Shown: positions 9,953 through 48,969, counted from the stretch's first letter. The stretch is 64,000 bases of DNA from an uncultured Anaerolineaceae bacterium (GCA_964648195.1 CAZYLL010000007.1:64102-128101); one strand, 5' to 3'. Notes: generated by a model from the sequence alone, not told the origin. Translations and numbers: made by a program.

Positions 9953-10576
9953 TCAGGGGCGGTTGAGCGTGGCCCGAACCGCATCCAGGGCCAGTTCGGC
10001 GACGCGCGGCGCGGGCAGGGCGGCATCGACGATGACCCAGTGGCCGGCCTCTGAGCGGGCCTGGAGGAGGTAACCTTCGCGCACTTTCCGGTGGAATTCG
10101 ATCCCCTGGAGTCCGGTCTGGATGGCTTCCGGCTCGCCGTGCTTCCGCCTGAGCCCGGCCTCGGGGGCGATATCGAGGTAGACCACGAGGTCGGGTTCAA
10201 GGCCGCCGGTGGCGGCCGCATTCGCTGTCCGGACGACCACCGGGTCGAGACCGCGGGCGTGAACCTGGTAGGCGAATGTGCTTGGCGCGAAGCGATCGCA
10301 GATGACCGTTTGGCCACGTTCGAGGGCGGGACGGATAACGGTGGCGACCAGCTGGGCGCGTGCGACGAGGAACGCAAACAGTTCGGCCCACGGCACGAGG
10401 GGCTGGTGCAGCAGGCCGCGTACCAGCTCCCCGGCCGGCGTGCCGCCCGGTTCGCGGGTGTGCAGCACGGGGATGCCTTCGGCCTGGAGCCGGTGGACGA
10501 CGGCAAGGGACGCAGTGCTCTTGCCCGAGCCCTCGCCGCCTTCGAAGACGACGAAGCGGCCGCGGTCAGCGCCCAA
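9953..10576 (-). CDS. tmk: dTMP kinase
   Basis: It has the P-loop [14 protein letters not shown] and TREPGGT. The TTG start at 10576 overlaps the upstream stop. The 536-aa track ORF is an artefactual upstream extension. Confidence 0.85.
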
Positions 10577-12278
10577 GGCCGCCGCCCGATCCGAGGGGAA
10601 GGATCTTGACTCGCCGCAGCGGCTCCTTCCCGGAGCTGGTGCTATCGAGGTTGTAGCGGGTGGCGAGCTGGTGCTGGACGCGCCGCACGTAACTGTTGGC
10701 AGGCGGGAGCTCGACGGGCCGGCCTTCCTCGATGACTTTCGCGATGGCGTCTTCGGTCTCGCGGAAGACATCGACCATCGGGTCGCGGCGCGGGCTGCGC
10801 GCGCCATCGCCACCGCCCCGGAACTGGAGGAGCGCCTGTTCGAGCTGGAAGGTGCTGTTGCTCTTGACCACGTACATCGGGAGGTTGCGCTCTTCCGCCT
10901 CGCGGAGGGCGGCGGGCTTACTCCGGTAGTAGCTGCGCATGGTGAGCACGGCGTCTGCTTCGGCAACGTCGTCGACGAGCTGCACAGGCACGCCGGTCGA
11001 GCGGATGGCGGTCTCGAGGCGGTTGCGCGGAATGCCAAAGGGGAAGAGGCGCGCCACGCGGCCGGCAGTGCGGCCCGGGGCCGCGGGCGCCTCCCCGGGC
11101 TCTGGTTGCTCGAACAGGTAGCTATCGCGGTGTTCGCGCTCGCGGACGTGGCCGCCGTTGCGGCGGTGTCCAATTTCCCAGGTGGATCGGCCGGGAGGGG
11201 CAGCCTGCTGGGCGCCTGCGCCGACCCTCGCTTCCTCCCGGGCTGAGTCGTCGACGATTTCGATGCGGCCGCCGCGGCCCAGCTGGCGCGTCTCGGGGCG
11301 TGCCTCGTAGCCGCGGAGCATGGCGTCGACGGTATCCGCCACGTTTTTATGGATGCGGACGCGCTGCCAGCTCTCGATTTCGATGACCACGTCGAAGGTC
11401 GGTGGCGCCTTGCGCTCGAGAATCGACTTCTGCGTCCCGCGGCGGCGGGCTTCCTCGTCACCGAGCGTGACCGACTGGATGCCGCCGATGAGGTCGGCGA
11501 GGGTGGGGTTGAGCATGAGGTTTTCGAGCGAGGTGCCGTGGGCGGTGCCAACGAGCTGAACACCGCGCTCGGCGATGGTACGGGCGGCCTGTGCCTCGAG
11601 CTCGGTGCCGATCTCGTCGATGACGATCACTTCGGGCATATGGTTTTCGACGGCTTCGATCATCACCGCGTGCTGGGCGAGCGGGGTCGCGACCTGCATC
11701 CGGCGCGAGCCGCCGATGGCCGGGTGGGGCACGTCGCCATCGCCGCCGATTTCGTTCGAGGTATCGACGATAATGACGCGCTTGTTCGCGTCATCGGCCA
11801 GGACGCGCGCGATTTCGCGGAGCATGGTGGTCTTGCCGACGCCCGGCCGGCCGAGGAGGAGGATGCTCTTTCCGCTGAGGACGAGGTCTTCGATCACGCG
11901 GATGGTGCCGTAGACGGCACGGCCGACGCGGCAGGTGAGGCCGATGACCTTGCCGCGGCGGTTGCGGATGCAGGAGATGCGGTGGAGGGTACGCTCGATG
12001 CCCGCGCGGTTGTCATCGCCGAAATCGCCGATGCGGTCGATGACGTACTGGAGGTCGTCTTCGGTCACCTCATCCCTGCTGAGCACCACTTCGCGCCCGG
12101 GGTAGCGCGCTTCGGGCAGGCGGCCGAGGTCCATCACGACTTCGAGCAGGTCGGACCGGCGTTCTTCGGAGCGCAGCGACTCGACGATGCGCGGGGGCAG
12201 GGCATCGAGCAGGAGGTCGAGGTCGTCGGTGACGATCTGTTCGTTGGGAAGGGGCGTGGCGGATGGATTCTGGGACAC
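10566..12278 (-). CDS. AAA-type ATPase with C-terminal R3H-like domain (Ycf45/SpoIIIAA-like)
   Basis: It has Walker [14 protein letters not shown], Walker B VIVIDEIG, and a C-terminal block [30 protein letters not shown]. Confidence 0.8.
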
Positions 12279-38210: not shown

Positions 38211-38654
38211 CTAGCCGACGCGCTCGGCGATTTTGCGGGGATTGACGACGCGGGTAAGGAGAAAAGTGACCAGGCTGATGATGACGGCGCCCCAGAATGC
38301 TGGCCAGAAGCCATCGATTTCGAACCGGATGCTTTCGAACTTGCCGGCAATCCAGGCCGTGAGGGCGAGGAGGGCGGTGTTGATGAGGATGAGGAAGAAG
38401 CCCAGGGTGAAGACCAGCGCGGGGAGCGACCCGAGGACGAGCAAGGGCTTCAGGTAGGCGTTGAGCAAGCCGAGGATGAGCGCGACGGCGAGGGTGCTCC
38501 CCCAGCCTTCGAGGTGGATCCCGCCGAGCAGTTCGGCGGCCACCCAGACCGCGACAGCGGTGATGAGCCAGCGGGCAACGAAGGCGACGGCCCGGCCGGC
38601 GCCGGAAGGTTCGCGATTGCGGCCACCAACGGTAACGACGACGAAACCTGGCAT
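38211..38654 (-). CDS. 4-TM membrane protein of the phage-holin-4/YvlD-like family
   Basis: It has WLITAVAVWVAAELLGGI ... LILGLLNAYLKPLLVLGSLP ... LGFFLILINTALLALTAW. Confidence 0.65.
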   Translation of the reverse strand: MPGFVVVTVGGRNREPSGAGRAVAFVARWLITAVAVWVAAELLGGIHLEGWGSTLAVALILGLLNAYLKPLLVLGSLPALVFTLGFFLILINTALLALTAWIAGKFESIRFEIDGFWPAFWGAVIISLVTFLLTRVVNPRKIAERVG

Positions 38655-38690: not shown

Positions 38691-39494
38691 TCAGGCGGCC
38701 TGCTGGCGGAGCATGGCGAGCATGGTCTGCTGGAAGCGGACGCGTTTCTCCGGGTCGCGGATCTCGGCGCTGATCCGTTCGGCCAGGGAGGCGACGGCGT
38801 CGCGGGGCAGTGTGGGGCGGGTGAAGCCCAGGTCTTCGACGGCGTCATCGATGATGATCTCCGCCAGGGGGCCGAGGGCGGCGGCGACGGCTGTGGTGAG
38901 GGCCTGGAAGAACTGGGCCCCCGCCAGCTGGCGGACAGGGGCCGGGGCAGCCTGCGGGGCGGCGAGGTCGATCAGCCCGGAGAGGCGCAGGCGGTAGAGG
39001 CGGCGGATAGCCTCGAAATCGTCGATGCCGAGCTCCGCTGCGATGGTGCCGGCGGTCGCCTGGCCATCGATGAGGGCGATGACTTCCCAGTCGGCCGCAT
39101 CGATGGTGACCGAGGGGGCGGGAGGCTTGCGGGCGAGCCGGGGGAGGGTATCCATGGAGGGGATGACGCGGCGCATGGCCTCGCGTTCGCCGGCGGCGCG
39201 GGCCGACTCAGCGAGCAGGACATCGAGCGGGCGGTCGATGGTGCGGTCGGGCGCGGGGAGCCCGGGCTCGAAGCGGAACTGGCCGTTCGGCCAGCTGAAG
39301 AGGCGGAAGAGTGCCTGTTCGCCCCACTCGGGGCCAGATTCGGCGTGCACGATGGCGCCCCCGGCGAGGAAGATATCGCCGGTATCGAGGCCGGAGGTGA
39401 GTTCGAGACGGCCGGTTTGCCCCCCGGCACCGAGCATTTTGAGCAGGTCTCCCAGCGGTAGCTGGGCGAGGCTGCCGGTGAGTCCTTCTGGCAT
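38691..39494 (-). CDS. PATAN/DUF4388 domain protein
   Basis: Its N-terminus is LAQLPLGDLLKMLGAGGQTGRLELTSG..DIFLAGGAIVHAE..GEQALFRLFSW. A middle wHTH-like block reads WEVIALIDGQATAGTIAAELGIDDFEAIRRLYRLRLSGLI. Confidence 0.7.
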   Translation of the reverse strand: MPEGLTGSLAQLPLGDLLKMLGAGGQTGRLELTSGLDTGDIFLAGGAIVHAESGPEWGEQALFRLFSWPNGQFRFEPGLPAPDRTIDRPLDVLLAESARAAGEREAMRRVIPSMDTLPRLARKPPAPSVTIDAADWEVIALIDGQATAGTIAAELGIDDFEAIRRLYRLRLSGLIDLAAPQAAPAPVRQLAGAQFFQALTTAVAAALGPLAEIIIDDAVEDLGFTRPTLPRDAVASLAERISAEIRDPEKRVRFQQTMLAMLRQQAA

Positions 39495-39527
39495 GGTTGT
39501 CCCTCCCGTTTCCCTCGGATGAAGGTG

Positions 39528-39977
39528 CTAACTCCCGCGCGACTGGATGATGGCCCAGGAGTTCCACGAGCCGTGGTCGAGGGCTGTCCTGTTCACGAGC
39601 GCGGAGCGCTCGGCGCGGTGACGCTGGAGCCGCTTCCGGGCGGCGGCGTTCTTCTGCCAGCTTCCAATGACGACATCGGCGCTCAGGCGGACCATGGCCA
39701 TATCGGCATCGGGCTGGCAGACGACGAAGAGGACGGCATCACCGATGTCGCGGGCCAAAAGCCGCCAGGTGTTGTAGGCGAATTCGAGCCTGGGAGCATC
39801 CTGGCCGGCGGCCTGCAGGGCGACGAACGCGCGCCCGACCTCGCGGCCGATGGTGTTCATGGTGACCGTGGCGAGCACGGCGGGGTTGGAGCTCACGATG
39901 ACATCGCCGCGGTTGTCGCAAAGGAACGACCCACCAACGCCAGGTACCGTGCTGATCTGCTCCAGCTCCTTTTCCAT
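39528..39977 (-). CDS. Roadblock/LC7 (MglB-like) domain protein
   Basis: It has LEQISTVPGVGGSFLCDNRGDVIVSS ... AFVALQAAGQD ... LEFAYNTWRLLARDIGDAVLFVVC and a basic C-terminal tail. Confidence 0.7.
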   Translation of the reverse strand: MEKELEQISTVPGVGGSFLCDNRGDVIVSSNPAVLATVTMNTIGREVGRAFVALQAAGQDAPRLEFAYNTWRLLARDIGDAVLFVVCQPDADMAMVRLSADVVIGSWQKNAAARKRLQRHRAERSALVNRTALDHGSWNSWAIIQSRGS

Positions 39978-39989
39978 GCCAGTCCCCTG

Positions 39990-41030
39990 CTAGGCCACGA
40001 GCTCGGCGAAGTCGTCGCGCAGGTTGAACCGATCGACGACGGCGGCGTGTTTTTCGCTGACACCTTCGAGCCGCTCGCGGATGCGTGTCTCGAGGTCGGC
40101 CCGCTTGAGCTGGAAGGCGAGCTTGGAGACGGTATCGCTGAGGCAATCACCGAGCGCCTTGCTGAACTCATCGGGCAGGGGGCCATCGAAGGCGACTTTG
40201 CCCGCGCGGTACTCGAATTCGGCGGCGAAGGGGTCGAGGAACGGGTAGGTGGGCGCGCGGGCGACGAGGACCTCCTTGAAGGCCATGAGGAAGCGGCCGG
40301 GCTTCGAGTATCCATCGGCAACGGACTCAACGGTGGCGACGACTTCGGACCAGAAGGCGAGCAGCGCCTCGCGGTGGGTCTCGGCGGCGGCGACGGGACC
40401 GGCAGGCCGGGCGGGCGCGCCATTGGCTGCTGGGGCCGGGGCGGCTTCGACGAACACGTTGAATGAGCCGCCGGAAGCGGTGACCAGCTGCACGATGGTG
40501 TTGAGGGCATCCTGGCCGGCGTTCAGGCCGGCGGGGGTGGAGAGGACGCTCTCGACCGGCTCGCCGTCGGCGAGGTAGATGACGCCGGTGCCCTGGCCAT
40601 CCCCGGCCTGGACTTCGACGTAGCCGGTCAGCCCATCGGAGCGGAGCTTGGCGATGAGGCGGTCGAGGCTGGTGAACGCGCTCGTGAGGTCCTTGTAGAG
40701 CGGGCGGGCATCCATGAGGCGATGGAGGAGGAGGACGACATCGGGGAAGGCGGAATAGACGTTGAGGGTGCCGTCCTTTTCGGTGGCGCGGGCAAGGATG
40801 CCGCGGACCGCGGGCGCGCCGGTGACGCGCCCGGCGCCGGACTCCTCGCAGGCGTTGACGATCTCGCCTTCAGAAAGGAGGAGCGTGCCGGTGTGGCCGG
40901 GGAAGGCGACCTCGACATAGCCGGTGAGCCGGCGGGACTGGAGGTCGGCGAGGAGCGCCTCGAAGGAGGTGAACGAAGTGTTCAGGTTGGCGTAGAGGGT
41001 ACGGTCTCGGGGGAACATCATCGTGGTCAA
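39990..41030 (-). CDS. protein with two tandem PATAN/DUF4388-like modules plus an unknown helical C-terminal domain
   Basis: An internal repeat is visible: FTSFEALLADLQSRRLTGYVEV..GTLLLSEGEIVNA versus FTSLDRLIAKLRSDGLTGYVEV..GVIYLADGEPVES. Confidence 0.6.
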   Translation of the reverse strand: MTTMMFPRDRTLYANLNTSFTSFEALLADLQSRRLTGYVEVAFPGHTGTLLLSEGEIVNACEESGAGRVTGAPAVRGILARATEKDGTLNVYSAFPDVVLLLHRLMDARPLYKDLTSAFTSLDRLIAKLRSDGLTGYVEVQAGDGQGTGVIYLADGEPVESVLSTPAGLNAGQDALNTIVQLVTASGGSFNVFVEAAPAPAANGAPARPAGPVAAAETHREALLAFWSEVVATVESVADGYSKPGRFLMAFKEVLVARAPTYPFLDPFAAEFEYRAGKVAFDGPLPDEFSKALGDCLSDTVSKLAFQLKRADLETRIRERLEGVSEKHAAVVDRFNLRDDFAELVA

Positions 41031-41446
41031 CTCCTCGATGCGGGGTTCGAAGCGAGCGCCAGCCGGCGCAGCAGTTGAGCAACCGAAGGAAGGACGGCGG
41101 TGGCCCGGCCGGCGCTGGTGAGAAGCGAAAGGTACGTGCGCCCATCGACGGGGCAGATAAGCGTTTCCGACACGCCGGGGCCTGCGATGAGGACGTGGTC
41201 GAGACGGCTGCCGGCGAGCTGGCGGCCCATGCCCCGGAGGTCGCCATCAACCGGGAGTGCTTCGGCGCGGAGGGCCACGAAACTGGCGAGAGCAGCCTCG
41301 CGGGGCGCGTTGGGACAGCCGCTGGCGCCGAGCGCCCTGCCATCGGCATCGCAGACCAGGGCCGACCGGACGCCATCGAGCGCAGCGGCAGCAGCGGCAA
41401 GCCGGGGAGCGAGGGCCGGGTCGAACGAGACGGTTGGCGCGGGCAT
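41027..41446 (-). CDS. Roadblock/LC7-like protein
   Basis: This 139-aa protein has LDGVRSALVCDADGRALGASG ... LDHVLIAGPGVSETLICPVDGRTYLSLLT. Its stop overlaps the start of the next gene (ATGA). Confidence 0.6.
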   Translation of the reverse strand: MPAPTVSFDPALAPRLAAAAAALDGVRSALVCDADGRALGASGCPNAPREAALASFVALRAEALPVDGDLRGMGRQLAGSRLDHVLIAGPGVSETLICPVDGRTYLSLLTSAGRATAVLPSVAQLLRRLALASNPASRS

Positions 41447-41481
41447 GGTGGCGTCCTCGGTCGGGGGTTGGCTCGATGGTT

Positions 41482-42708
41482 TCAGGCGGCGGCGCGGCGC
41501 TGGCGCAGGCGCTCGATGGCGGAACGGAGGCTGGCCTGCATGCGGCGGAGCGATTCGGCGAGCTGGCCGACTTCGTTGCGACCTTCGACATCGATTTCGA
41601 CGTTGAGTTCGCCGAGGCTCATGCGGTCGGCAACATCGGCCAGGTGCTTGAGCGGGCGGGTGATGGTGGCGGAGATAAAGACGGCCAGGGCGAGCGCAAG
41701 CAGGATCACGCCGAGGGCGGCGCCACCGTAGGTGTAGAACTCCTGCTGGGCCTGGCTGGTGCGTTCATCGAAGCGTGCGTCGAGGGTTTCCTGGGCAGCG
41801 GAGAGGAGCTGATTCGAGAGGTCGATGGCGCTTCCGCCGAGGAGGAAGTAGCCTTCGGCGCCGGTGGTGGAGAGGATGTTGGCGTTGATGATGTTGTTGG
41901 TGGTGGATTCGCCGAAGACGTTGCGCGACGTCTCGGCGCGGCGTGCGATCGGGCGGAGGGATTCCTCGAAATCGGCATTCGCGGCCATCGCGGTTTCGAG
42001 CGCGCGGGAGAGGGCATCGGCGTGGGCGGCAGCGAGGCTCATCTGCGAGACGAGGTAGGCCTTCTGCTCGGCGGTGGCGGACTGGCCCTGGCGGGCGATG
42101 AGGGCGGCGGTGCCGAAGCTGCGGGCCTGGGAAAGCGCTTCGGTGAGGCGGGGCAGGGAATCGGTGAGGGCGACGATGACGCTGCGGCTATCGAGGTCGG
42201 GGTCGAGCACGAGCCGGGACTCGACGGAGACCGTGGAGAGCAGCGGGAAGATGCCCTGTTCGATGAGGCGGGTGTGGGCGGCGTTGGAATCGATCGCGCT
42301 CGACCGGGAATCCTTGACTTTGGGCCACTCGGAATTCAGGAACTGGACGAGTTCGCCAGTCCCAAGGGCATCGCCGTGGCGGGAGTTCATGTCGTTGATG
42401 ACGGCGAGGGCGGCATCGGCGGCCGCCGCGGTGCGAACCATGTTATCGCGCGAGAACTCGTCGCCGCTGAGGACGCGCTGGACAAGGCCGCGGTGGATCT
42501 GCACTTCGCGGAGGAAGGGGACGATGGCGGCGACGTAGTCGAGGCCATCGGATTCGGCGCTCGCCTGTTCCTGCGTCTCGGTGCGCTGCTGGTACTGGAC
42601 GAAGAGGAGCGCGGCGATGGGCAGCGCGAGGACGACGACAATGAGGCCGAGTTTGTTGGAGATGCCGAGGTTGGCGATGGCGGAAAAACCGGGCAGGTGA
42701 CGACGCAT
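41482..42708 (-). CDS. membrane sensor with a NIT-like extracytoplasmic domain and HAMP, without an output domain
   Basis: TM1 is LGLIVVVLALPIAALLFV. NIT-like motifs are FLREVQIHRGLVQRVL and LSQARSFGTAALIARQ. TM2 is AALGVILLALALAVFISATI. The HAMP domain is TRPLKHLADVADRMSLGELNVEIDVEGRNEVGQLAESLRRM. The protein ends about 20 aa after HAMP. A GGAGGGA RBS precedes ATG 42708. Confidence 0.75.
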   Translation of the reverse strand: MRRHLPGFSAIANLGISNKLGLIVVVLALPIAALLFVQYQQRTETQEQASAESDGLDYVAAIVPFLREVQIHRGLVQRVLSGDEFSRDNMVRTAAAADAALAVINDMNSRHGDALGTGELVQFLNSEWPKVKDSRSSAIDSNAAHTRLIEQGIFPLLSTVSVESRLVLDPDLDSRSVIVALTDSLPRLTEALSQARSFGTAALIARQGQSATAEQKAYLVSQMSLAAAHADALSRALETAMAANADFEESLRPIARRAETSRNVFGESTTNNIINANILSTTGAEGYFLLGGSAIDLSNQLLSAAQETLDARFDERTSQAQQEFYTYGGAALGVILLALALAVFISATITRPLKHLADVADRMSLGELNVEIDVEGRNEVGQLAESLRRMQASLRSAIERLRQRRAAA

Positions 42709-43126
42709 GCTCCCTCCAAGGTGACCCGGGCGATGTCTGGCTGGGAATCCCGGGCAAGGCCGGGCCCGCGTGGGGCCTGGCACTCCCTGCTATTTCCAGA
42801 ATCGACGCCCGGCGTACACGGATAAGGTGGCAACTGCGTGGAGCAGGGGGCGCAGGACCGGGAACCACGCCTCCAGGCGCGGGGGTTATGCGGGCCGGGC
42901 GAGGAGGAGCGCCGCAGCTTCGGGCGGCCGTAGATTCACCGGGGGTGTGGGGGCGTTCCAGTGCGGGGGCGCGTGGCGCCGCGGCGGGTGGATGAGGGGG
43001 TTTCGCACGAAAATTCCTGCGTTGCCGGCGGCGCGGGCGTGGACCGCACGAAGGCCCCAAGAAAGGGGCCAGGGTGAGGTCGAACGCGCCGCAATGGGGG
43101 TAGACTCAGGGCCACGGAGGACAGCG

Positions 43127-45839: not shown

Positions 45840-46898
45840 ATGGCGGACCCATCGATCGTCATCGAGGCGGCTGGCCGCGAGGTGACCGTCACCAACCCGG
45901 GGAAGGTGTTCTTCCCGAAGGCTGGCTTTACGAAGCTGGACCTGGTGCGGTATTACCTCTCGGTTGCCGATGGTGCGCTCCGCGGCGTGATGAACCGGCC
46001 GATGGTGCTGAAGCGGTTTGTCAACGGCGTGGAAGAGAAGCCTTTCTTCCAGAAGCGGGCGCCCGCGAACCTGCCATGGGGCATCGAGACCGCACGCGTG
46101 ACGTTTCCGAGCGGAAGGAGGGCGGACCTGTGCGTGATCGATGATGCGGCGGACCTGGCATGGGTGATCAACCTTGGGTGCGTGGACTTGAACCCGTGGG
46201 CGGTGCGAGCCAGCGACGTAGAGCACCCCGACGAGCTGCGAATCGACCTGGATCCCACACCAGAGGCGACCTTCGCGATGGTGCGCGAGCTTGCGCTTGT
46301 GTGCCGCGACGTGCTGGCGGATTACGGGTACACGGGATACCCGAAGACGTCCGGGAGCCGGGGCATCCACATTAACGTGAGGATCGAGCCAAGGTGGACG
46401 TTCACGGAGGTGCGCCAGTGCGCGCTGGCGTTCGGGCGGGAGTGCGAGCGCCGCGCGCCGGAACTGGCGACGACGAAGTGGTGGAAAGAAGAGCGGCACG
46501 GGGTGTTCATCGACTACAACCAGAATGCGCGCGACCGGACGGTCGCCTCCGCCTATTCGGTACGTCCGACGCCGAACGCGCAGGTCTCGACGCCGCTGGA
46601 GTGGGACGAGGTGGGGACGGTGGAGCTGGCGGACTTCACGGTCGCGAACGTGCCGCGGCGGTTTGCGGAGCTGGGCGACCCGGGGGCGGGTATCGATGAC
46701 CGGGCATTCTCGCTTGAGCCGCTATTGGAGTTGAGCCGGAAGCAGTCGGAGGCGGGGCTGGGCGATGCGCCGTATCCGCCGCACTACCCGAAGGCACCGG
46801 GAGAGCCGCGACGGGTGCAGCCGAGCAAGGCAAAGAAGGATGCAGAAGCCGCCAGGACGCGAAGAGCGCCCGGGGGAGCGCCAAGGGCTTCTGAATAA
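45840..46898 (+). CDS. NHEJ polymerase/primase (stand-alone LigD Pol domain)
   Basis: It has VTNPGKVFFPKAGFTKLDLVRYY, KPFFQKRAP and KTSGSRGIHINV, followed by a basic C-terminal tail. Confidence 0.88.
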   Translation: MADPSIVIEAAGREVTVTNPGKVFFPKAGFTKLDLVRYYLSVADGALRGVMNRPMVLKRFVNGVEEKPFFQKRAPANLPWGIETARVTFPSGRRADLCVIDDAADLAWVINLGCVDLNPWAVRASDVEHPDELRIDLDPTPEATFAMVRELALVCRDVLADYGYTGYPKTSGSRGIHINVRIEPRWTFTEVRQCALAFGRECERRAPELATTKWWKEERHGVFIDYNQNARDRTVASAYSVRPTPNAQVSTPLEWDEVGTVELADFTVANVPRRFAELGDPGAGIDDRAFSLEPLLELSRKQSEAGLGDAPYPPHYPKAPGEPRRVQPSKAKKDAEAARTRRAPGGAPRASE

Positions 46899-47387: not shown

Positions 47388-48401
47388 TTACGCATCGAAG
47401 ACACGCTGCAATTCGTAGGGGACGGCAGCCTCGAACTGGTCGAACGTGCAGGTCCGCGGGGGCTTATCGGTGCGCCAGCGTCTGAAGGTGGCTGCGTGGC
47501 GGAAGCGGTTGTCCTGAAGGTAGTCAAAGGAGACTTCGCAGACGAGTCCGGGGCGGAGGCGCACCCAGGAGAGGTCCTTGCCGCCTGTCCAGCGGCTGGG
47601 GGCGCCGGGGGTTCTTCCCTGGCCGAACGATTCGGCTTCGTCTTCGGAGCGGTAGGGCGCCAGGAAGGCCACCAGGTCGCGTTTTTCGCTGGCGCTGAAG
47701 CTGGAGGTGTGACCGACGTGGTGGAAGAGGCCATCGTCGCTGTAGAGGCCCAGCAGGAGGGAGCCGACCGATTTGCCCTCTTCGCCACGGTGCCAGCGAA
47801 AGCCGCCGACGACGCAATCAGCGGTGCGGAGGTGCTTGATCTTGGCCATGACGCGTTTGCCCGGCTGGTAGGCATCGGAAAGCTTCTTTGCGATGACGCC
47901 ATCGAAGCCGGCGCCTTCGAAGCGTTCGAACCAGTCGAGCGCAACCGCGCGGTCAGCGGTGGCGGGGGTGAGGTAGGCAGGGGGGGAGACGTGTTCGAAG
48001 TAACGCTCGAGGCGGGCGCGGCGCTGGGCAAGGGGGGCCGTGAAAAGGTCGTCGGCGCCATCGCGGAGCATGTCGAAGGCCACAAAGGCGGCAGGCGTTT
48101 CGCGGGCGAGCATGCGGACGCGGGATTCGGCGGGGTGGATGCGCATCTGGAGGGCATCGAAGTCGAGGCCTTTCGGTCCCATGATGACGATTTCGCCGTC
48201 GAGGATGGCGGGGTCAGGGAGGGCGGCGGCGAGGCCGCCGACGAGTTCGGGGAAGTAGCGGGCGAGGGGCTTGAGGTCACGCGACTGGAGGTAAGGCGGC
48301 GAAGCGCCATCGTAGAAGACGATGCAACGGAAGCCATCCCACTTCGGTTCGTAGAGCCAGCCATCGCCCGCGGGGATTCCGGGCGTGAGTTTGGCGAGCA
48401 T
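47388..48401 (-). CDS. ATP-dependent DNA ligase (stand-alone LigD ligase domain / LigC-like)
   Basis: It has MLAKLTP..GWLYEPKWDGFR (adenylation Lys motif), GFDGVIAKK and an OB-fold C-terminus. The start was re-picked at ATG 48401. Confidence 0.88.
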   Translation of the reverse strand: MLAKLTPGIPAGDGWLYEPKWDGFRCIVFYDGASPPYLQSRDLKPLARYFPELVGGLAAALPDPAILDGEIVIMGPKGLDFDALQMRIHPAESRVRMLARETPAAFVAFDMLRDGADDLFTAPLAQRRARLERYFEHVSPPAYLTPATADRAVALDWFERFEGAGFDGVIAKKLSDAYQPGKRVMAKIKHLRTADCVVGGFRWHRGEEGKSVGSLLLGLYSDDGLFHHVGHTSSFSASEKRDLVAFLAPYRSEDEAESFGQGRTPGAPSRWTGGKDLSWVRLRPGLVCEVSFDYLQDNRFRHAATFRRWRTDKPPRTCTFDQFEAAVPYELQRVFDA

Positions 48402-48498
48402 GGGAGCGATGGGGGATGGGGGTTGCGAGCCGGGCACGCAGGGATTGTGGCGTAGCCAGAAGCGAGTTGCGAGTTTGCCTCTCTCGCAAGCGCGAAGG

Positions 48499-48969
48499 CT
48501 ACTTGTCGGAGGAGACGGCAGGGAGGCGGAGGCAGTGCTCGCTCTTGCGGCAGAGTGGGACGGGGGGCTGGAGGTTGGGGTCGGGGATGCACTGGGGGTC
48601 CCAGGTCTGGACGAAAACGGGAGTGATGACGGTGCCCTTGAGGGCGGGATCGAAGGCGTCGACGAAGGTGGTGGAACCGCCGTATTCGATCCGGAGGGCG
48701 TTGGATACCTCTCCGCTCTCAAGGACGCCCGTATCGAAGAAAGGTGGGTCTTCGGGGAAAAGGCTCGGGATGATGATGCGGCGGGGCTGGTTGCCGGCGT
48801 TCTTGAAGCGGACGTACTCGCGGTTCATGCGGCAGATCGGGGGGTTGAAGCCGGCCTCGCTGACCTCGATGGTCTGGACTTCGTAGGCGCGCGGGGCCAA
48901 CGGCGGCGCGAGCGCCTGGGCCAGCAGGGCCAATGCGCAAAGGGGGAGGAAGATGCGGCGAGCAGACAC
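48499..48969 (-). CDS. secreted hypothetical protein
   Basis: It has a GTG start and a signal peptide MSARRIFLPLCALALLAQALA, and the mature part of ~130 aa contains 4 Cys. I recognise no family. Confidence 0.55.
   Translation of the reverse strand: MSARRIFLPLCALALLAQALAPPLAPRAYEVQTIEVSEAGFNPPICRMNREYVRFKNAGNQPRRIIIPSLFPEDPPFFDTGVLESGEVSNALRIEYGGSTTFVDAFDPALKGTVITPVFVQTWDPQCIPDPNLQPPVPLCRKSEHCLRLPAVSSDK

Follow-up and report, generated by a model that had tools for sequence, protein, structure and literature searches.

A HAMP-terminal receptor, Roadblock-type proteins and PATAN proteins in a five-gene block of a Tepidiformaceae-related genome: a candidate adaptor cassette without a linked kinase or GTPase

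Introduction

Can a membrane receptor that carries no kinase, together with Roadblock-type and PATAN proteins that come without a GTPase, constitute a signalling system? The question is raised by five tightly packed genes, here called A to E, on the minus strand of a 64,000-nucleotide (nt) stretch of DNA from an uncultured Anaerolineaceae bacterium (GCA_964648195.1 CAZYLL010000007.1:64102-128101). This whole stretch is referred to as the window, and the five open reading frames (ORFs) occupy its positions 38691-42708. A first-pass annotation, made from the sequence alone, read them as a sensor with NIT and HAMP domains, two Roadblock/LC7 proteins and two PATAN/DUF4388 proteins, likened the block to the actinobacterial conservons and to the surroundings of MglA-type small GTPases, and named decay of such a locus as the alternative. 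By the source names of its close homologues, the block groups with the Tepidiformaceae (Dehalococcoidia, Chloroflexota). In public annotation its proteins are called 'HAMP domain-containing', 'hypothetical' and 'DUF4388 domain-containing'.

The answer that we favour, at a probability of about 0.45, is an adaptor complex that is anchored by its receptor and belongs to the PATAN/Roadblock regulators found in company with polarity GTPases of the MglA/MglB type. That PATAN, Roadblock and MglA proteins are generally associated is already known. What appears to be new is a cassette of five defined components that recurs across phyla, has a receptor ending in HAMP and, in the present genome, is not coupled to any GTPase gene. 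The first-pass annotation knew of no described system of this composition, and a literature search agrees with it: no paper was found that treats this cassette, DUF8082 (a part of protein E, described below) or the pairing of DUF4388 with Roadblock.

Conservation of the cassette across phyla

A genome scan with the E-family alignment against one genome per GTDB species gave 66 loci. The full set of five families is present in 49 fetched loci, whose flanks differ and whose proteins are 32-100% identical to those of the window; this co-occurrence is far beyond chance. Since the ORFs are intact in 49 loci whose flanks are unrelated, the block is a maintained unit and no remnant.

The order A-B-C-D-E is found in the Tepidiformaceae and in two other Chloroflexota (L046, L048), and the same kit recurs in permuted order elsewhere. 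Blastocatellia (L050-L054) carry a PATAN-B fusion followed by C, D, E and A; two other Acidobacteria (L055-L056) have a PATAN protein, C, a D-like protein, E and A. The Anaerolineae-type cassette (L059-L062, L067) consists of PATAN-B, C, D, a protein with DUF8082 only, and A, and is preceded by genes for a kinase, an OmpR-type regulator, a REC-Ras GTPase fusion and an unknown gene, and followed by genes for a solute-binding protein, a Roadblock protein, MglA, SCP2 and two further Roadblock proteins. The REC-Ras fusion (Response_reg 6e-21, Ras 1e-39), at 6163-7086 of L059 and likewise in L060-L062 and L067, lies two genes upstream of the cassette, and as it adds to the downstream MglB/MglA pair, these loci carry two different small GTPases. 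The Desulfobacterales arrangement (L064-L073) comprises a Roadblock protein, a Ras-like GTPase, an unknown gene, the DUF8082 protein, A and C, a PAS/HisKA protein, a REC-PATAN protein and a 117-residue protein related to D. Just downstream of two of these Desulfobacterales cassettes lies a gene for a TPR-MshEN-T2SSE (PilB-like) ATPase (L064:15490-17871 and L065:11250-13706); no such gene was seen in the window or the remaining fetched loci. One Chloroflexota metagenome-assembled genome (L049, 7455-12028) has a REC-type match joined to PATAN-B, then C, D, E and A, and an MglB-like Roadblock gene after these; no MglA was detected nearby. Its first cassette protein, of 354 amino acids (aa), has an N-terminal extension matching the REC-PATAN query, and its receptor is shortened to 266 aa.

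In the rearranged lineages the DUF8082 gene always stands directly upstream of the receptor gene, with an overlap in some cases, and in L058 and L063 no cassette family other than these two was detected, which points to DUF8082 as the direct partner of the receptor. Because the kit recurs in permuted order across phyla, the adjacency of A and B in the window is a local permutation.

The receptor and its HAMP-terminal family

Protein A has two hydrophobic segments that flank an outside domain of about 285 aa, with HAMP (PF00672) directly after the second transmembrane segment, at residues 344-395 (Pfam 7e-15). The HAMP model is matched by all 12 of the diverse A-family members compared. This part of the first-pass reading stands, as does the end of the protein soon after HAMP. 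Its NIT assignment finds no support: none of the 12 members matches NIT (PF08376) or any other sensor model at an E-value of 1 or below, and a search of PDB sequences with the A-family profile returned HAMP proteins only, without NasR at an E-value of 10 or below.

Matches of A to kinase and methyl-accepting chemotaxis protein models are confined to the HAMP region and fall far below the cut-offs, and no MCPsignal, HisKA or HATPase output domain follows HAMP in A by Pfam or NCBIfam. The only cytoplasmic part of A is HAMP with a conserved basic tail. From the Tepidiformaceae to the Desulfobacterales, A-like receptors end 0-4 residues past the motif RM(Q/R)xS(L/I)(R/K)xAIERLRxRR that closes HAMP. 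The outside domain varies by lineage (sCache_3_3 in Acidobacteria, a zinc ribbon and a Cache-like domain in Desulfobacterales) while HAMP and the tail are kept. HAMP plus tail appears to be the conserved signalling end of these receptors. Since the receptor family stops just after HAMP, with the same tail, in three phyla, A did not arise from a kinase by loss of the catalytic part, contrary to the first-pass picture of a CvnA minus its HATPase domain.

The same observations bear on the conservons. The likeness to CvnA-CvnB-CvnC-CvnD lies in a HAMP membrane sensor followed by a Roadblock-type protein, and the B profile weakly matches CvnB5 (E-value 0.12). The block differs in having no HisKA/HATPase, DUF742 protein or GTPase, in a receptor family that never carries a kinase, and in a sensor-Roadblock adjacency that arose by operon permutation: in the relatives the receptor sits at the opposite end of the operon, beside the DUF8082 protein. 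The CvnA-CvnB analogy therefore fails as an account of the gene order. As A has no HATPase domain, no DUF742 match was obtained and the MglA HMM found no GTPase in the window, conservon identity was rejected. That the locus is a non-functional remnant of a conservon or Mgl system, from which the kinase domain, the DUF742 protein and the GTPase have disappeared, is very improbable. The resemblance of the sensor-Roadblock gene pair to cvnA-cvnB and the CvnB5 match speak for such decay, but the five ORFs are intact and conserved, the receptors end right after HAMP in three phyla, the A-B adjacency is lineage-specific, and neither DUF742 nor HATPase is matched.

Roadblock-type proteins B and D

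Taken singly, the two small proteins are divergent. B matches Robl_LC7 (PF03259) with an E-value of 0.016 and 15.4 bits, under the Pfam cut-off of 23, and D has no Pfam match. Their families fare better: 14 of 21 B-family members match Robl_LC7 (best 1e-5), as do 7 of 21 in the D family (best 4e-7). Among PDB sequences the D profile places Roadblock proteins first, 7f8m (0.0027) and 7yh1 (0.008), over most of the domain; the B profile places a Robl_LC7 protein first (0.038), ahead of CvnB5. One member of the D cluster is named as Roadblock/LC7/MglB family by IMG. Given these family-level matches and the top PDB hits of the profiles, both proteins are likely members of the Roadblock superfamily, with support at the level of the families and not of the window proteins themselves; the first-pass assignment is upheld to that extent.

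B and D align with each other in hhalign at 87%. In the PATAN-Roadblock fusions, the B-family hidden Markov model (HMM) matches the C-terminal half, which is the Roadblock one, at 3e-19 to 2e-7, and the HMMs of D, of the MglB-like proteins and of the 117-residue protein do not match that half. In L059 the fusion protein matches both DUF4388 and Robl_LC7 in Pfam. As only the B HMM finds it, the Roadblock moiety of the fusions is orthologous to B. D aligns with the Desulfobacterales 117-residue protein at 96.7% in hhalign. By these comparisons B and D are separate Roadblock paralogues, and each of them can be followed from lineage to lineage.

PATAN proteins C and E

C matches DUF4388 (PF14332) over two stretches (Pfam 4e-8, 33.6 bits). 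Its two modules are tandem duplicates (hhalign 99.6%), and each aligns with the PATAN module of E at 79-86% probability. The tandem modules had been recognized in the first-pass annotation; the conserved C-terminal domain that follows them had been missed. The AlphaFold2 model of C (70 sequences, pLDDT 92.5) comprises two alpha/beta modules, a disordered linker and the helical C-terminal domain, in which a beta-hairpin follows the near-invariant YPFLDPF motif and which is aligned across three phyla. Neither a sequence profile nor a whole-chain fold search found a relative of C in the PDB. The family is large, with 669 representatives at E-values of 1e-3 or below among 1.84 billion cluster representatives (clusters at 50% identity), and it includes a REC-PATAN-C fusion (P0389) and fusions of C followed by DUF547 (P0291, P0338). 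One C-family protein, P0340, has a weak match to the archaeal DUF2226.

E matches PATAN/DUF4388 strongly (Pfam 9e-21, 74.6 bits), as the first-pass annotation had seen. It had overlooked what comes after, a winged helix and a four-helix C-terminal domain, which together make up Pfam DUF8082 (PF26309); the assignment is a precomputed Pfam match on the window's own E product (L004) and on homologues. With these domains in E and the C-terminal domain in C, the earlier description of the block as a sensor plus scaffold proteins only is no longer adequate. The AlphaFold2 model of E (63 sequences, pLDDT 90) has an alpha/beta module with a strand and helix order similar to that of the modules in C. 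The REC model (Response_reg) matches none of the five block proteins.

A winged helix raises the alternative of a transcriptional output, in which E would be a DNA-binding PATAN-winged-helix regulator, held at or released from the membrane by the receptor and the Roadblock and PATAN proteins, and the block a kinase-free route to gene expression. The modelled winged helix is canonical (residues 117-178) and Foldseek finds local matches to it in the PDB at a probability of 0.96-0.98. Some E homologues (P0075, P0088) have weak MarR-type matches or names, the DUF8082 protein of L069 has weak helix-turn-helix (HTH) matches, and the receptor is always accompanied by the DUF8082 protein. In the account of Makarova et al. 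(2006), PATAN domains are reportedly linked to HTH domains at times. However, no HTH model is significant on E. Its putative recognition helix is poorly conserved, and the first two residues of that helix are acidic in most of the Tepidiformaceae sequences, so that a protein-binding winged helix is suggested instead. The best whole-chain matches of E are NPRL2 and NPRL3 of GATOR1/SEA, whose winged helices mediate protein contacts; these matches are not significant (E-value 0.05-0.3, TM about 0.23) and serve as a lead only. The conserved part of DUF8082, moreover, is the helical C-terminal domain and not the winged helix. On balance we consider a transcriptional output quite unlikely.

The eukaryotic Ragulator and GATOR1 complexes offer a further comparison. 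Ragulator-type systems have membrane-anchored Roadblock heterodimers, and NPRL2 and NPRL3 are subunits with a longin and a winged-helix domain. The block here similarly combines two Roadblock proteins with proteins made of alpha/beta platforms and a winged helix, apparently tethered to a membrane protein. With fold matches of E below significance and no Rag-like GTPase here, the comparison is offered as an analogy only.

Linkage to MglA-type GTPases, kinases and response regulators

An HMM built from 120 MglA sequences found nothing in the whole window at an E-value of 10 or below, and Pfam (with NCBIfam for kinase domains) reveals no kinase, GTPase or DUF742 protein in the block, in agreement with the absences noted in the first-pass annotation. 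No MglA lies within 10 kb of the cassette in any locus from the Tepidiformaceae (about 45 loci), Blastocatellia or Acidobacteria. The HMM matches 12 loci from Anaerolineae and Desulfobacterales, where an MglB-like Roadblock gene and mglA stand beside the cassette, and by the names of its closest relatives the GTPase next to the Anaerolineae cassette is a bona fide MglA. The first-pass annotation had made its case depend on whether relatives adjoin a GTPase or a kinase, which would mark an ordinary locus in decay. They do so in Anaerolineae and Desulfobacterales (MglA/MglB, kinases and REC-PATAN proteins), and they do not in Tepidiformaceae, Blastocatellia and other Acidobacteria; decay is not the explanation, as the Tepidiformaceae block is intact and conserved.

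Compared with the MglA/MglB(/MglC) polarity module of Myxococcus, Thermus and others (Wuichet & Sogaard-Andersen 2014; Makarova et al. 2006), the block shares the company of Roadblock-fold and PATAN proteins, and its homologues in Anaerolineae and Desulfobacterales stand directly beside mglB-mglA. It differs in that neither the window nor the 10 kb around the cassette in Tepidiformaceae contains a gene for MglA or an MglB-like protein, that B and D are divergent paralogues not close to MglB, and that the HAMP-terminal receptor, the C family and DUF8082 do not belong to the described Mgl module.

One explanation for this pattern is that the Tepidiformaceae encode MglA and MglB elsewhere and that the operon is an unlinked input or accessory module, acting as in Anaerolineae. 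In its favour are the mglB-mglA genes physically linked to the cassette in Anaerolineae and Desulfobacterales, the MglB-like Roadblock gene after the receptor gene in L049, and the PATAN genes reported near some mglA and mglB genes (PMC4316618). It is weakened by the absence of MglA from the window and from the Tepidiformaceae loci and by the acidobacterial versions, which also lack a linked GTPase. Among the best 120 of more than 8000 MglA relatives, none is named Tepidiforma or comes from large Tepidiformaceae contigs, which is weak evidence. We regard a trans-acting accessory of this kind as possible, if on the unlikely side.

The cyanobacterial PatA-type regulators (PixG, PixE and PilG, PATAN-REC proteins that bind PilB1 and PilC) resemble the block in using PATAN as a likely protein-binding output, and a link to REC exists in the family, as Desulfobacterales cassettes include REC-PATAN and a REC-PATAN-C fusion is known. 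Here, in contrast, the five proteins have no REC domain, there is no chemosensory kinase, no pilus genes lie nearby, and PATAN is joined to the winged helix and four-helix domain of DUF8082 in E or doubled in C.

Proposed mechanism

In the receptor-anchored adaptor complex that we propose, ligand bound outside the cell would change the conformation of the HAMP domain of A. By binding or releasing the DUF8082 part of E, HAMP and the tail would then control the assembly of a complex at the membrane, in which B and D, as a Roadblock pair, join C and E. The PATAN modules of this complex, three in all, may bind the target protein that constitutes the output, either a PilB-type secretion or pilus ATPase or a small GTPase and its regulators. 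In Synechocystis, PATAN is the output domain that binds PilB1 and PilC (bioRxiv 10.1101/2021.06.11.447907), and PATAN genes have been reported close to some mglA and mglB genes (PMC4316618). Besides these published observations, the proposal draws on the block kept whole in 49 loci, the permuted component sets, the DUF8082 gene next to the receptor gene, the constant HAMP and tail behind differing sensors, the MglB-like and MglA genes beside 12 cassettes, the REC-PATAN genes and the REC-PATAN-C fusion, and the PilB-like ATPase genes beside two Desulfobacterales cassettes. In Anaerolineae and Desulfobacterales the target pathway would be encoded next door (mglB-mglA, REC-PATAN, kinase). In the Tepidiformaceae the module is encoded alone, and its partners may lie elsewhere in the genome, or it may act without a GTPase.

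Several points weigh against this proposal. Searches of the window, and of the 10 kb around the cassette in every Tepidiformaceae locus, turned up no GTPase, PilB-type ATPase or REC protein. B and D are remote from the MglB-like proteins of the related loci (hhalign 0.4% and 41%). We infer the contact between HAMP and DUF8082 and the B-D heterodimer from gene order and the habits of the families. The winged helix of E leaves room for a transcriptional output. Finally, C-like proteins also occur outside this system, as is shown by a distant C-like gene (P0329) that stands alone without any cassette.

A different reading would make the cassette a self-sufficient transmembrane pathway free of kinase and GTPase, in which HAMP and the tail directly control a Ragulator-like Roadblock/PATAN platform, the output being through PATAN or the winged helix, and in which linkage to MglA/MglB is an add-on and not the core. 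We hold this to be unlikely.

Gene organization and genomic context

The coordinates of the block and its domains are collected in Table 1. The five minus-strand genes and the gaps of 35, -4, 12 and 33 nt between them are as the first-pass annotation had given them. In public gene calls C starts at the ATG at 41021 and is 343 aa long, which leaves a gap of 5 nt. This spacing suggests that the five genes form an operon. A GGAGG ribosome-binding site lies about 5 nt ahead of the ATG of gene A at 42708. A promoter scan upstream of A found no sigma-70 consensus, a terminator scan found no terminator-like site on the minus strand within the block, and an Rfam search for RNA elements gave no match.

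Table 1. Positions in the window of the block genes, their domains and adjoining features (aa, amino acids; TM, transmembrane)
Feature	Position	Strand	Description
Gene A	41482-42708	-	408 aa, two-TM receptor; 13 residues beyond HAMP; public name 'HAMP domain-containing protein'
A, extracytoplasmic sensor domain, about aa 40-323	41740-42591	-	Candidate sensor of no assigned family
A, HAMP (aa 344-395) and conserved C-terminal tail RMQASLRSAIERLRQRRAAA	41485-41679	-	Pfam and family alignment; putative output surface
Gene B	41027-41446	-	139 aa, divergent Roadblock/LC7-type protein
Gene C	39990-41030	-	346 aa from TTG; two tandem PATAN-like modules, linker and helical C-terminal domain
C, PATAN module 1, aa 10-105	40716-41003	-	DUF4388 match, hhalign
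C, PATAN module 2, aa 109-194	40449-40706	-	DUF4388 match, hhalign
C, helical C-terminal domain, aa 213-346	39993-40394	-	Conserved; near-invariant YPFLDPF motif
Gene D	39528-39977	-	149 aa, divergent Roadblock/LC7-type protein
Gene E	38691-39494	-	267 aa, PATAN, winged helix and four-helix C-terminal domain
E, PATAN, aa 5-110	39165-39482	-	Pfam DUF4388, AlphaFold2 model
E, winged helix, aa 117-178	38961-39146	-	AlphaFold2 model, Foldseek
E, four-helix C-terminal domain, aa 193-266	38697-38918	-	Invariant GPLAEIIIDD and FQQ motifs
Possible sixth gene	38211-38654	-	147-aa PF04020 (Phage_holin_4_2-type) membrane protein, annotated in L004
Divergent intergenic region upstream of A	42709-43126	.	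Presumed promoter region, from sequence reading

The PF04020 gene follows E on the minus strand after a gap of 36 nt. A homologue is present in 29 fetched loci, mostly directly after E, and none was found in the more divergent Tepidiformaceae loci among those fetched. It may be a sixth operon member in the subclade that carries it, although its membership is uncertain.

A cassette of several poorly annotated proteins with a 'holin-like' PF04020 gene downstream could suggest an anti-phage defence system or the cargo of a mobile element. We find either hardly credible. At an E-value of 0.01 or below PADLOC gives a single match, a weak one between the winged-helix region of E and a CARF-type model (0.0023, 15.6 bits). 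Within the family the cassette appears to be inherited vertically, and there are no mobile-element genes nearby. The neighbouring genes are housekeeping ones (UbiE, UbiA, ResB, a helicase, purM, purF and a tRNA synthetase), as are ten window genes sampled by Pfam.

Three further features of the window may be recorded. Its G+C content is 65-72%, and GC skew is +0.10 to +0.21 in all 2-kb bins of the 64,000 nt but the first, regardless of gene strand, a strong and uniform asymmetry. A LigD primase-polymerase gene (45840-46898, plus strand), a few kb from the operon, is convergent with an ORF (47388-48722, minus strand) that by eye looks like an ATP-dependent DNA ligase; if it is one, the two would make an apparent end-joining repair pair. 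At 10566-12278 on the minus strand a 570-aa protein joins an AAA/SpoIIIAA-like NTPase, a phosphotyrosine-phosphatase-like domain and R3H, an unusual mix that has no relation to the block.

Conclusions

To our knowledge, a route by which an outside signal reaches MglA/MglB-type polarity switches is known only for the Frz chemosensory pathway of Myxococcus. The cassette is a second candidate input route to such switches, and a widespread one, the C family alone counting 669 clusters at 50% identity. It also offers a possible function for receptors that end after HAMP, whose output would be by direct protein contact and not through a kinase, a cyclase or a methyl-accepting domain. Tepidiforma species have been cultivated and are motile (PMC10284905), which makes the hypothesis experimentally testable; the same paper makes no mention of pili, MglA or GTPase. 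If it is true that the Tepidiformaceae version works without a GTPase, it would represent a new bacterial signal-transduction logic built from Roadblock and PATAN parts, and such a GTPase-free version would bear on the origin of the eukaryotic Roadblock/longin platforms.

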